From contig NC_090364.1 of assembly GCF_035084215.1 (NCBI RefSeq), positions 4,278,001-4,342,000 on the forward strand: a DNA stretch of 64,000 nt. Direction: 5' to 3'. Numbering within the stretch: position 1 is the first letter of the stretch; each line of letters opens with the position of its first letter. The stretch comes from Heptranchias perlo (taxonomy: Eukaryota). Both the position numbers and the translations under genes were made by a program. The notes beneath the pieces are model-generated. The model had not been told where the DNA came from. It saw nothing but the letters and a program-made list of their open reading frames with translations, and did not search any database. Of the stretch, positions 4,071 to 61,188 are shown piece after piece.

Positions 4071-4841
4071 TTATGCTTGAGGCTTTCCGCGACCGGTGGG
4101 CACCGCAGGGGCTGGAGTGCATCCTGAACGAGGATAATAAAATTTTGATTTGAACTCTTGGTTTTGGTTTGTTTGGTTTTTAGTTGTTAAGCACACCCCA
4201 CACCCCCCTTCTTATAAAAGGGGGGCCTAATTGGAAAAAAGAACAAAAAAAAAAAAAAAAAAAAATCTGTAAAAAAAAACAATCCCTGATAGCCACTCAG
4301 GAATCTTCCATGAATCCAGGCACCAATTAACAAAGGACAGGGGGTTATGCTTGAGGCTTTCCGCGACCGGTGGGCACCGCAGGGGCTGGAGTGCATCCTG
4401 AACGAGGATAATAAAATTTTGATTTGAACTCTTGGTTTTGGTTTTTAGTTGTTAAGCACACCCCACACCCCCCCTTCTTATAAAAGGGGGGCCTAATTAG
4501 AGAAGATATAAAAAAAAATAAAAAAAAAAAATCCAGGCACCAATTAACAAAGGACAGGGGGTTATGCTTGAGGCTTTCTGCGACTGGTGAGCACCGCAGG
4601 GACTTTTTAATGTGTTTTAGGCCCCCTTTTATAAGTGGGGTTCGCACCACAGGGACTGGAGTGCATCTTTGATCAGTACAATAAAATTATTTGACTTTGT
4701 TTATTTTTATTCTGATTAGTGTTTAAAAAAGAAAGTGACACCCTAACCCCCCTTCTTATAAAAGGGGGCCTACCCCCCCCCCCAAAAAAAAAGGGGATGT
4801 ATGGTGTTAAAGAGGGCTTATATAAAAAAAGATAAAAAGAA
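4071..4841 (+). mobile_element. Stack of three 5'-truncated Tx1-clade 3' ends (4071-4279, 4345-4531, 4562-4841) separated by duplicated promoter sequence
   Basis: Each matches the ORF2 end (LEAFRDRWAPQGLECILNEDNKILI*), GT-rich 3'UTR, C6-TTCTTATAAAA-G6 hairpin and poly(A) of the full-length element at 37375-37556. Confidence 0.92.
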
Positions 4842-4928
4842 GTGGGGGTGGGGTGTGATTCCCAGAGCCAGTCAGAACTTTGGAATACAGGCAGGTTTGG
4901 ATGATTCTGTGATGTCATTGCTGATGGT

Positions 4929-5127
4929 CTCTATTCTTTTTGTATTACTATTAATAACTCAAATCAACTAATGAAAGTGCCCTTTTTTAGAGGGGCACAA
5001 ACAATCAACACCCCAAATCATAAAAACCAAAGGAAACTTATCAAACTAAACAATAATATTACCCACCGGTCGTGGAAGGCCTCAAGCGCACTGGCAGACA
5101 CCCCGAGTTACCTCTCCAGGGCCACCC
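4929..5127 (-). mobile_element. Older, inverted 5'-truncated Tx1-clade fragment in copy-1 upstream region
   Basis: Reverse complement reads cgggtggccctggagagg...ggtgtctgccagtgcgcttgaggccttccacgaccggtggg (cf. 37335-37401) plus 3'UTR hairpin; flanked by imperfect repeat gctgatggt/gctgttagt. Confidence 0.8.
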
Positions 5128-5139
5128 GCTGTTAGTTTT

Positions 5140-5550
5140 TTTGACTTTCCTCAAACTGAATCTGATAACATCTCTGTTCCCAGAATCAGAGCTTCACAAC
5201 ATATCTCAAAGAGATCAATGAGTTTACAAATGGAAATCCCATCCAGTACATGGTATCAAGCACAATCGGTTCTAAGTTAACCCGTCTCTTAGACAATTGA
5301 TGGGCATGTGGATGGGTCCAGAAAGAGTCCATTATACCAAGATTCACAATGTTGATCAGCACAATAGATTGAAGGAGACTGACCTTCACCAGACAGTCCG
5401 CAAACCAACCGACGAGTTGGGGAAATGGAAAGTGGATCAGGTGGGAGCTTCAAACAGAACTCTGTTGCTCCATCACTAAAGTGCGAAGTGGATTTTTATC
5501 CCCATGAAATTTAAGAACTGTAAAGTCCAATGTTTAGTTTGCACTGTTTT
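5140..5550. repeat. Conserved ~400-bp upstream block of the ferritin repeat unit (also ~10585-11010, 16750-17175, 22105-22525, 37985-38405, 53385-53790)
   Basis: Clearly alignable copies (tctgataacatctctgttcccagaatcagagcttc...gaccttcaccagacagtccgcagtgagtccgcaaacc...gtttgcactgtt). Confidence 0.85.
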
Positions 5551-58400: not shown

Positions 58401-58976
58401 CAGTAGTTGTACACTCACTAGTCATTTAGTGTTAGAAAGAGCTAGGCACAGTGAAAGCAGCTTCACTAGGATTCACATAGTACTTCAACTCCAGTTATAA
58501 AAAGCAAGAAAGGCAGTGGGTATCTGCCAACATTTCACTGGCTACAGTCACCCCATTGAAGCTGAACTTTGATGTCAAATGTTGACAAGCACTTGACCAG
58601 GTTTCTGCTCTTCTCTTCCAAACTCAGGCAGCAGCTGAGCCAGGTTCATATATTAAACCCCTCAATAGAGTGCAGCTGCTTGTAAGGAGCAATCTTTTAA
58701 CTCAACAAAAGATCACCCTGTATTACATACTGGAAGTACTCACTGCCCAAAGAAATCCCCCCCAGGGAGGAAGGAGAAAAGGAAGGCAAGAGAAATATAA
58801 TTTAAAGCCAGTTCTGAACTGGAAAAATTCTAGCTTCTTCAAATGCACTGTCAAATAATAAGACTCACCATGGAGAGGTAAACATAGGAGGAATAGAGCT
58901 CCATATTGATCTCCTTGTTGACACCATCCTCACACTCCTTGTGGTAGTTCTGACACACTTGAGAATCCACCTTCAT
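55450..58976 (-). CDS. fth1: Ferritin copy 7 (175 aa, variant: MKVDSQ N-terminus, E62K); exons 58869-58976, 57219-57365, 56003-56128, 55450-55596
   Basis: Open frame across GT-AG junctions; the usual ATG is GTG (58968-58970) but an in-frame ATG lies 2 codons upstream; exon 2 reads ...[22 protein letters not shown]...GGQIIL. Confidence 0.8.
57596..58309 (+). mobile_element. Young 5'-truncated CR1/L2-group LINE in intron 1 of copy 7
   Basis: [33 protein letters not shown]...[17 protein letters not shown]...[12 protein letters not shown] (post-RT domain); ends with aataaaaaaaa. Confidence 0.85.
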
Positions 58977-60652
58977 TGTTTCTATATTAGTATTTTTTTA
59001 AACTATGCCCAGAAAATTCTAGAATTACCCACTTCCCCCACAAGCTCTTGTATTTATACTACTGGGACAGCCTGCATTTAAGCAAGGAATGACATCACCA
59101 ATGATGATTGGCTGTCAGGGATTGTCAATCAGGAATCTCCATGAATTCAGGCACCAATTAATAATGGGGGGTGGGAGGGTGTGATAACCAGAGCCAATCA
59201 GAGGTTTGGAATACCGGCCGGTTTGGATGATCAGTCTCGGTGATGTCATTGCTTTTGGGATCTTTGACCTCCCTCAAATCTGAAAGTGTCTCTTTGTTGA
59301 AATCTCACGGAATCATAACGTTGAATTATTTGATAATAATTTGCTATTTTCACTGAGTTGGCTTTTCATAATCTGGTCAAGTTTGTTACTTGTTAGTAAT
59401 TGTGACACGGACAATATTCAAAGGAATCAAGTAGTCTTGAGTGAATTTGCAAACCAAACCTTGGACAGAGAAATGGAAATTCCATCCCATGGATGGTGTG
59501 AATCGTCCCCAGTTCTAATATAGAGAATGGGTGTGTCTGAGGATTGGCAGCATGGGGGCATCAACTGGGCAAAGCATTGTGGGATGTGTCATGTTTGGTT
59601 ATTTTTTTCATGAATACTGAATACAATGTCACAGACAGACGCATCCCCATTTACTCCAGCGTGTTAGATGAGTCTTTTTATGGTCAGCTTTCCATGAGGC
59701 TAAAGAATATTTGGAGCTAATTGAAATGATGAGATTCAGATGTTCTAACAGTCTAGCTCATCACAGTGTTTTTCTGAGATCCAAAGTCTTGACATCTGGT
59801 TTCATTGCAGAAGTAGTTCAGTCTTGGTGATGATATGTGTTCCCTTGGATTAAAACTCTGTTTTAGAGGGGGTGGCAGTGATTCACATCCAGATCCACCA
59901 ATCATTGTATAAGACACTAGCTTATTTGGGAGATGCTACCAATGAGCACAGTTGACCCACCTAAACTGGAAATATATCTGGGTATTTATAACTGTATTGG
60001 CCAGAAAGGATCCAAGATGCAGTGAATATTCTGCGGTCACAAAGAGGTTCAACCAGACTGATGGACATCCCTATGTTCATACTCAATGACCACCCAGAAA
60101 CTTTGATTAAGGTCTGTTGTTACTGTTTCTGAGAGAGTGTTTGATTGATTCTTTCCACAGAAGCCCTTAGAATTCAGTATCACTACCTGTAGGGAGTGGG
60201 GATGTTGACAGGTACAAAAAACCTCAAAAAAAAACTGCTCTTCCCGGAGCAGATACTTTTCTTAAATAGAATGGTTCATTGGACTGAAATGGTTTAACCC
60301 ATTTATTGCCTTCATCTTTTAGCAGAAGAAAATGTTACAGCAGCTGTATTGAGTGGTTAAAGAGTCACCATTTATGGAAAGAGCATATCAATCAGCAGTG
60401 GGAACAGTAACTTGTCTTTACTTCTGGTTTCAACACAATCATTGAAATGTACAAATACAACTTGCACTCCAGGTATATACAGGATTGGAATTAGACTTTC
60501 AACAGGTGGCCCTGAACACTGGAAGTGCTCACTGCTCAAAGATTTTTTTCCCCCAGGGAGGTGGAAGGAAGTCATGAGAAATAGAGTTTAAAGCCAGCCC
60601 AGAAATGGAAAAATTTCAATTTCTAAGAATGCAGTGATAATACAAGACTAAC

Positions 60653-60757
60653 CATGGAGAGGTAAACATAGGAGGAATAGAGCTCCATATTGATCTGCTT
60701 GTTGACACCATCCTCACACTCCTTCTGATAGTTCTGACACACTTTGGAATTCATCAT
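60653..60757 (-). other. Orphan ferritin exon 1 with its own promoter (alternative first exon or truncated pseudogene)
   Basis: (M)[34 protein letters not shown] then a GTTAGT donor; TATA/CCAAT block at 60799-61010; no exons 2-4 before the copy-7 promoter. Confidence 0.8.
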
Positions 60758-61061
60758 CACAATGTTTGAGAACTAACCTCTTCCCTCACAAGCTCTTGTA
60801 TTTATACTACTGGGACAGCCTGCATTTAAACAGGGTATGACATCACCAATGATGATTGACAATCCCTGATAGCCACTCAGGAATCTTCCATGAATCCAGG
60901 CACCAATTAACAAAGGACGGGGGGTGTAGGGGCTGGAGGGATGAGACCCTGAGCCAATCAGAGCTTTGGAATACAGGCAGGTTTGGGTGATGAATATCAG
61001 TGATGTCACTGCTTTTGGGTTCTTTGATCTCCCTCAAATCTGAAAGTGCTTCTTTTGAGCT

Positions 61062-61188
61062 TTCTCCACGCCCAGGTGTCTGCCGGTATGCTTGAGATCT
61101 TCCATGACCAGTGGGCACCACAGGGATTGCAGTGTATAGCAGACACTGATAATATTATGATCTAGTTTGAAGAAAAAGAAAGTAAAAC
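61062..61188 (+). mobile_element. Old 5'-truncated Tx1-clade 3' end upstream of the orphan exon 1
   Basis: ggtgtctgccggtatgcttgagatcttccatgaccagtgggcaccacagggattgcagtgtat...tag + A-rich tail; absent from the paralogous promoter at ~59290. Confidence 0.75.

Follow-up and report, generated by a model that had tools for sequence, protein, structure and literature searches.

The window analyzed here, 64,000 nucleotides of the shark Heptranchias perlo (C43:4278001-4342000, in a genome of 3.25 Gb), contains seven ferritin genes on the minus strand, one extra ferritin exon 1 and a partial eighth gene. The promoters of most of these genes hold pieces of a Tx1-clade long interspersed nuclear element (LINE), and the relation between this element and the promoters is the subject of this report. 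The ferritin features are:

1304..3869, minus strand: ferritin copy 1, four exons, ATG at 3869
6883..9940, minus strand: ferritin copy 2, ATG at 9940
13162..16455, minus strand: ferritin copy 3, Tx1-free promoter, used as reference empty site
18617..21677, minus strand: ferritin copy 4, ATG at 21677
24182..30415, minus strand: ferritin copy 5, with a Harbinger-type transposon in intron 1 (about 26413-29883)
40063..46296, minus strand: ferritin copy 6, a duplicate of copy 5
55456..58976, minus strand: ferritin copy 7, Tx1-free promoter
60639..60754, minus strand: extra ferritin exon 1 with promoter

The Tx1 pieces, with duplicated promoter DNA between some of them, are as follows (percentages are identities; TSD, target-site duplication; UTR, untranslated region; ORF, open reading frame):

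4072..4278, plus strand: Tx1 3' fragment with poly(A), 92% to the full-length copy; 5' junction common to 4346 and 4563
4279..4345: duplicated promoter piece of 67 bp, from nick site to shared 5' junction
4346..4531, plus strand: Tx1 3' fragment, 88% to the full-length copy and 91% to 4072, with a different tail
4532..4562: duplicated promoter piece of 31 bp, beginning at the favoured nick site
4563..4780, plus strand: Tx1 pieces, a 42-bp piece (4563-4604) followed by older nested 3' pieces (4605-4780, 71-74%)
4929..5128, minus strand: old inverted Tx1 3' fragment in the copy-1 promoter, 69-84%
10220..10570, minus strand: old inverted Tx1 3' fragment, 77%, 280 bp upstream of the copy-2 ATG
12030..12482, plus strand: Tx1 fragment outside promoters, 84%, TSD about 11 bp, the only one of its kind in the window
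21877..21995, plus strand: old Tx1 3' UTR fragment in the copy-4 promoter, 72-81%, TSD about 11 bp
30747..37556, plus strand: full-length Tx1, a mosaic element, head to head with ferritin copy 5
46628..53384, plus strand: full-length Tx1, the resident copy, with a TSD of about 18 bp at a TCTGAT site and a stop interrupting ORF2
61062..61188, plus strand: old Tx1 3' fragment upstream of the extra exon 1, 75-81%

All 11 pieces that an earlier note on this DNA had listed as Tx1 proved to be Tx1-derived, ten at ferritin promoters and one outside. A scan with a 17-piece library added just 37758-37866, a duplicate of the fragment at 21877, in keeping with the earlier statement that only one insertion lies elsewhere. 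When earlier inserts are discounted, the pieces are situated 200-332 bp from ferritin ATGs (3869, 9940, 21677, 30415, 46296 and 60754), as the promoter-proximal placement described before would have it; two of the eight ferritin promoters in the window (ATG 16455 and 58976) have no Tx1. Promoters make up 4.3% of the non-redundant host DNA, yet nine of ten Tx1 events are found there (p=5e-12), and a conservative count of events, five of six at promoters, gives p=8e-7. The clustering of Tx1 at the ferritin promoters of the window is real and far beyond chance. The independence of these insertions had been overstated. The full-length copies at 30747 and 46628 share one 5' junction and the fragments at 21877 and 37758 are one event, both through duplication; the pieces at 4072, 4346 and 4563 likewise have a common 5' junction, although 4072 and 4346 are 9% apart in sequence and lie behind different nick sites.

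The assignment of the element to the Tx1 clade was confirmed. ORF2 of the copy at 30747 is open (33552..37454, plus strand, 1300 aa) and encodes an apurinic/apyrimidinic endonuclease (APE) domain (Pfam Exo_endo_phos, residues 5-226) and a reverse transcriptase (RT) domain (RVT_1, residues 511-761). ORF1 is frameshifted in both full-length copies of the window, and its zf-CCHC match scores 20.5 bits, just below the cut-off of 20.8. ORF2 is 54% identical to Xenopus Tx1 ORF2 (YTX2_XENLA, P0020) over residues 1-800 and 62% over the RT region. The RT tree that the earlier note had proposed (19 rows, with 18 of 120 listed matches used, a midpoint root and no L1 or CR1 outgroup) pairs the element with a stingray sequence (99/97) within a clade of six (100/100) containing Tx1L (P0020). 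Other hallmarks of Tx1 are present in the family, namely a poly(A) tail, TSDs and 5' truncation (26 TSDs in 52 dispersed copies, most of 9-17 bp). The hairpin loop with which the endonuclease reads its target can be aligned with the Tx1L loop; it is glycine-rich, has three residues fewer and lacks the tip. Changes at the tip of this loop alter specificity (PMC1950540, in excerpt), and the shortened loop hints, as far as sequence can, at looser targeting. A literature search, outside which lay Repbase, Dfam, supplements and most subscription journals, found no family that targets ferritin, in agreement with the earlier note; nor did it find any report of a Tx1 retrotransposon at zona pellucida (ZP) genes. 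The available part of the whale shark paper makes no mention of ferritin.

Two conventional kinds of target were rejected. At the TCTGAT site, the only place where this was judged, there is no dispersed transposon of the sort used by Tx1L and Tx1-Mar; the block there has 26 matches, 24 of them on C38 and C43. No Rfam match was found in the window at gathering scores, so there is no sign of U2 or another RNA gene at the site.

The preference for ferritin promoters extends outside the window. Among 20 further C43 promoters sampled from the 31 listed (three at 4.396-4.407 Mb and eight beyond 4.50 Mb were skipped), 15 are filled, in both orientations and with copies 70-98% alike, and by eye these represent about 10 events of different ages; the bias is therefore old and repeated. 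A poly(A)-flanked insert without a BLAST match (L061) was left out of this count. Every flank was inspected for the 62 copies that bear ORF1: 48 lie head to head at a ferritin promoter, nine at the promoter of a ZP3 gene, two behind another Tx1 and three elsewhere. Ferritin thus flanks 77% of the ORF1-bearing copies, above the 20% that Kojima's flank rule sets for a target-specific family, and falls below that level among 39 dispersed 3' ends. A 5' UTR motif common to sibling elements has 198 matches, with 82 of the first 100 on C38. The motif at the end of ORF2 occurs 1,993 times (0.61/Mb) in the genome. There are six such motifs in 16.0 kb of ferritin promoters (three when shared events are collapsed) and eight in 19.6 kb of ZP3 promoters (two when collapsed), so that the promoter enrichment after collapsing is about 170-300-fold, and ferritin stands about 300-fold above average.

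The 3' hairpin motif has 861 matches genome-wide, and exact matches on C1-C3, at 0.12 per Mb, extrapolate to some 390 dispersed copies from exact matches alone. Our dispersed sample comprised 39 of the 861 hairpin matches, in list order, and 13 top dispersed element matches. The flanks of 37 of the 39 hairpin copies are unrelated; the other two continue into ferritin upstream sequence and are most likely long transductions. TSDs of dispersed copies have a leading A alone in common (23/26; partly forced by the tail). Of the roughly 2,000 3' ends, a large share belong to short copies dispersed over unrelated sites, with TSDs of 9-17 bp. The objection anticipated in the earlier note, that most copies might lie elsewhere at a density that makes the clustering expected, holds in its first half: copies at unrelated loci are many, but 0.6 per Mb cannot yield the clustering. 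Genome-wide the ferritin exon-1 motif is matched 185 times, and most of the 100 matches listed lie on C38 and C43. None of six dispersed exon-1 matches has a Tx1 neighbour, and therefore it is the promoter that matters; three of the six are spliced retrocopies, and therefore these ferritin genes are expressed in the germline.

Individual dispersed sites gave some further observations. Four of 48 dispersed insertions (L119, L121, L172 and L173) lie in one LTR-like (long terminal repeat-like) repeat, with a TATA box and, in three of them, an E-box; this repeat is possibly another hot target. One copy (L016, C9:27693079-27696470) interrupts what reads, by its FGxGT motif, as a T-cell receptor J segment. 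No gene was seen in the 550 bp past the CpG-rich stretch that adjoins L032.

Ferritin promoters are not the only ones used. L082 has a ZP-N domain coded in its 5' flank; the ZP3-like family to which this belongs counts 158 exon matches, most of them on C38 and interspersed with ferritin genes. The ZP3-like array is very large (C38 3.6-20.9 Mb, C725 and C1048), with many ferritin-interleaved head-to-head pairs about 8 kb apart. When every fifth of 100 listed matches was sampled, nine of the 20 ZP3 promoters were filled, seven of them by one inverted-type event multiplied with its cassette; at least three events are represented, in addition to L082. Several ZP3 copies are in sense orientation within the TATA box, with a 73-bp TSD extending into exon 1 (L105/L145), and these take over the promoter. 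The TATA box had been said to be spared, and in the window it is; at ZP3, eight of the 20 sampled promoters are interrupted in it, and in the arrays 8 of 29 spacers begin on its gene side. As ZP3 genes lose their TATA box to insertions, the proposal that promoters serve as a safe haven is not supported.

A third host family, traced from a tail within the ferritin arrays, has 127 matches, mostly on C23, where about 100 first exons with promoter are scattered over 1-30 Mb (L157-L162). The first exon encodes a signal-like start and a trefoil domain. By its order of domains the family is probably ZPB/ZP4-like, although no ZP domain was seen. Eight of the 127 matches were picked by hand, and sibling elements (80% identical) lie head to head in two of these loci. 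Given the ZP3 and trefoil/ZPB-like promoters, the numerous dispersed copies and the variable nick sites, the idea of a family specialised on ferritin alone finds no support. An E-box-rich site at C13:73358600-73359180 (L156, L184) carries a tandem array of sibling Tx1 and is the source of seven of 39 dispersed tails; no clear ORF was found in 1.45 kb upstream of it.

An array starts with the gene and its promoter, followed by an element with poly(A), then a promoter piece and a further element. The 29 array spacers are 18-336 bp long and have 11 start positions, but their end is always one of three 5' junctions (19, 22 and 7 copies). There is no one fixed insertion base, considering the 11 positions, both strands and three gene families. 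A favoured base nevertheless exists, with 23 poly(A)|TCCARRCACCAAT junctions genome-wide, 22 of them on C38, C43, C725 and C402. The recurrence of poly(A) junctions reported before is therefore upheld genome-wide, except that the junction at 37557 was not cut locally and is a transduced tail. We infer that, where a new nick is combined with an old junction, the cDNA was primed next to a resident copy and completed by annealing to it. Long TSDs also occur without a resident copy (209 bp at L032/L164, 73 bp at L105/L145). Host promoter bases are found at element 5' ends: L032 has 9-10 extra bases equal to a ferritin junction, and L156 carried 75 nt of trefoil-gene promoter to a foreign site, which suggests that transcripts begin within host promoter DNA. 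In runs X1 and X4 (organism A, a single sample; RNA status a guess) there are contigs that span ferritin exon 1, promoter and element 5' junction, and the junction is therefore not peculiar to this assembly.

Tails also cross between families. A 98-108 nt piece of trefoil-gene promoter lies within ferritin arrays (L087, L089 and L092; one event), and a 78-nt piece of the C13 donor site lies beside ZP3 (L098). Donor tails were recognized in 15 of 39 dispersed copies, with ferritin a minority donor (2/15), ZP3 the donor of two, the trefoil genes of four and the C13 site of seven; one further dispersed copy carries a tail from inside ZP3. Repeated poly(A)-only insertions occur at a single CCAAT box in L160. 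Chains of poly(A) runs with 9-25 bp target pieces (L094, L095, L160 and L182) record either almost empty insertions that recurred at one promoter site or transductions stacked on each other.

The window also contains a 15.9-kb repeat, in which 21852-37732 is repeated from 37733; it consists of 10.6 kb of near-identical DNA and 5.3 kb of a different Tx1 copy that stems from another contig:

21852..32460: duplicated block, first copy, from the copy-4 promoter nick site to a breakpoint inside Tx1
37733..48340: duplicated block, second copy, including 37758-37876 (duplicate of the 21877 fragment) and ferritin copy 6

The two full-length elements match to about 32,460 and then diverge by 1-7%; the copy at 30747 is a mosaic, its 5' 1.7 kb equal to the 46628 copy and its remaining 5.1 kb different. 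After it comes a 149-bp ferritin promoter piece (37557..37705, plus strand) with a second poly(A) to 37734. This piece is 99.3% identical to C38 promoters against 94.6% to those of the window itself, and the 37557 junction is therefore a transduced tail. The divergent 5.1 kb thus closes with a tail of C38 type, whose poly(A) abuts the favoured nick of the copy-4 promoter. The repeat is a probable retrotransposon-made duplication of a ferritin gene; in the simplest reading, priming of a C38-derived cDNA at 21852 would have been followed by its annealing to the resident element, 10.6 kb off, and so by duplication of ferritin copy 5. Unequal crossover, with Tx1 copies of different haplotypes as partners, predicts an identical map, and the repeat is read from the assembly. 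The host DNA of the two blocks has 1 mismatch in 8,895 bp, yet the 3' 5.1 kb of the elements differ by 1-7%, with different tails and flanks, and we regard crossover or assembly error as rather doubtful substitutes for one-step insertion; either recombination route would still be Tx1-mediated. The C38 arrays lie between ferritin and ZP3 promoters, and the element may have helped mix both families.

Taken as a whole, the data make it reasonably probable that this is a Tx1L-type LINE with a loosely specific endonuclease, which inserts at a low rate genome-wide and hundreds-fold more often in a few very active RNA polymerase II (Pol II) promoters. The cue shared by ferritin, ZP3 and trefoil/ZPB-like promoters is probably an open oocyte promoter and not a sequence; in zebrafish follicles ferritin and ZP transcripts are abundant (PMC1488847, in excerpt). 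The junctions show a nick next to an A run in the promoter, on either strand and at favoured bases. A second cut may lie 70-210 bp off and then duplicates the promoter, as the structures show, so that the element gains a copy while the head-to-head ferritin gene keeps its own. Promoter-resident copies would then be the donors that are transcribed, from starts within host promoter DNA or by read-through of it, as 5' and 3' transductions imply. Later insertions may nick beside a resident copy, to which the cDNA would anneal, reusing the old 5' junction and building tandem arrays; annealing to a more distant resident copy could duplicate the intervening DNA, as for ferritin copies 5 and 6. Filled promoters are multiplied further by segmental duplication of the host, a step demonstrated at ZP3.

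Alternatively, the element might home by RNA homology, transcripts with host promoter ends pairing with paralogous promoters, so that the bias would be self-made after chance founders. The 37557 tail does start at the exact base nicked at 21852, 5' junction pieces stand behind several paralogous exon 1 types (L036, L043, L091 and L093), and ferritin 5' junctions number only three. However, ferritin promoters hold short, old copies that have no matching tail, ferritin-tailed copies are found at unrelated sites as well, and poly(A) stands between tail and target, therefore indicating priming on an A run. Together with the tails of unrelated promoter families that reach ferritin and ZP3 arrays, this makes homing by homology unlikely. 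The same tails argue against a sequence-specific cut, the view of the earlier note, in which the endonuclease evolved for the ferritin promoter as a safe haven, like that of Keno or Mutsu. Such a cut is hard to reconcile with 11 nick positions on both strands, with the use of ZP3 and trefoil-gene promoters that have no alignable common sequence, with filled ferritin paralogs lacking the favoured motif (L064-L067), or with a shortened specificity loop and dispersed TSDs that share only their leading A (23/26). We give it a slim chance, in recognition of the 23 junctions at a single base behind several paralog types, the 77% of ORF1-bearing copies at ferritin as against the 20% rule (PMC4494074, in excerpt), and Tx1L as nearest named relative.

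It could also be supposed that there is no insertion bias, and that redundant gene arrays received a few insertions by chance, which segmental duplication and unequal crossing over then multiplied and which were tolerated. A single ZP3 event accounts for seven of 20 promoters, there are three founder junctions, and old inserts are common to ferritin paralogs (L066/67/69/70; L072/73/76/79). But the 170-300-fold enrichment persists after collapsing, nine of ten events within the same array are in promoter DNA, new spacers with new tails require new priming events, and tolerance is unable to lift density over that of neutral DNA. This explanation is very improbable, having already been largely refuted.

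Several observations weigh against preferential insertion into active oocyte promoters as set out above. The favoured base is chosen far more often than any other, so that some sequence preference exists; the 48 ferritin copies trace to only three 5' junctions, and seven of nine filled ZP3 promoters are one event. Six of the eight trefoil-gene loci are empty, including all five sampled on C23, and therefore not every egg-coat promoter is a hot spot. At 48 dispersed sites (four others were dropped, L167 for a duplicate flank and L028, L177 and L182 for unresolved tails) CpG, TATA and GC are flat; the extended CCAAT motif is 2.35-fold enriched (p=0.03), one of six motifs, and nothing is significant after six tests. 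The promoter families sampled were those of ferritin, ZP3 and the trefoil genes, and oocyte expression of these shark genes is itself inferred. Run X2 (RNA status a guess) contains spliced ferritin contigs at a depth of 72,298, against 35-57 in the other three runs, a weak hint of tissue-restricted ferritin expression.

Further observations concern the ferritin genes themselves. Their top protein matches are shark ferritins, some auto-named 'oocyte isoform-like', a name derived from similarity and not from expression data. Other species, too, have large ferritin clusters (e.g. P0128, P0144). The 5' UTRs are very short (e.g. 16455-16540), with TATA about 85 bp from the ATG; Rfam found no iron-responsive element in the ferritin leaders of the window, and these genes look, from sequence, as if free of iron-dependent translational control. 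In the copy-3 promoter an A run (16760-16772) replaces the usual bases at the TCTGAT site, perhaps left behind by a poly(A)-only insertion. Farther upstream than the promoter, a block of 550 bp (5128-5690 and paralogous places) is 85-89% conserved in copies 1-6 and confined to the clusters, a possible enhancer. The Harbinger-type DNA transposon in intron 1 of copies 5 and 6 (26413-29883, duplicate near 42294-45764) has DDE_Tnp_4 and Myb/SANT ORFs. Intron 1 of copy 7 holds a young dispersed LINE 3' fragment (57590-58310), 98% identical to a flank on C1, with an ORF without Pfam match.

A bolder reading can be offered tentatively: that the LINE homes actively to oocyte-specific Pol II promoters with the help of a chromatin mark or a host factor, captures them by duplication, and thereby drove the expansion and inter-chromosomal mixing of the shark ferritin and ZP3 arrays. 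If true, a LINE in germline protein-gene promoters would have a further route to germline expression, in which it borrows the host promoter and leaves a copy behind. This would offer a mechanism of gene-family expansion, with a datable case in the window. Second-strand synthesis is a poorly understood step of LINE integration, and the 70-300 bp TSDs would be a natural source for its study. A tethering factor, if found, would be of interest for engineering retrotransposons toward targeted insertion.

Parts of this behaviour have parallels in other elements. R9Av makes a long TSD, of 126 bp, and R2 relies on host transcription and flanking homology; both resemble the shark element in these respects, but they have a restriction-like endonuclease and a fixed site in ribosomal DNA (rDNA). 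The S. pombe element Tf1 prefers promoters. In Drosophila, the P element and LTR elements are likewise guided to open, active promoters, but by transposase or integrase and with no promoter duplication or arrays, and germline insertions of the I-element, a LINE, are depleted from promoters (PMC10018349, in excerpt). Target-preferring LINEs are known at RNA genes, microsatellites, telomeres or other transposons (PMC4640811, PMC4494074, both in excerpt), and the target list in PMC4640811 includes no protein-gene promoter. Crocodilian Tx1-Mar, Keno, Kibi and Koshi share the Tx1-clade target preference, which is partial at times, and transcription from flanking target sequence has been proposed for this group (PMC4494074, in excerpt); their targets, in contrast, are transposons, U2 genes and microsatellites. 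Tx1L of Xenopus laevis has the same two ORFs, APE endonuclease and RT, and falls in the same 100/100 clade, but inserts into the Tx1D transposon (PMC4494074, in excerpt), whereas the shark element uses host protein-gene promoters, variable nicks and a loop three residues shorter. The closest precedent in spirit is zebrafish Mutsu, whose intact copies are gathered in an oocyte-expressed multicopy locus, the maternal-type 5S rDNA, and for which a role in copy number has been proposed (PMC5340908, in excerpt). The site of Mutsu is a single, sequence-specific one within an RNA gene; the shark element uses the Pol II promoters of three unrelated protein families and has many dispersed copies. The element thus works like a promoter-preferring element while being a member of the Tx1 clade, and is broader and less strictly specific in its targets than the earlier note had held.

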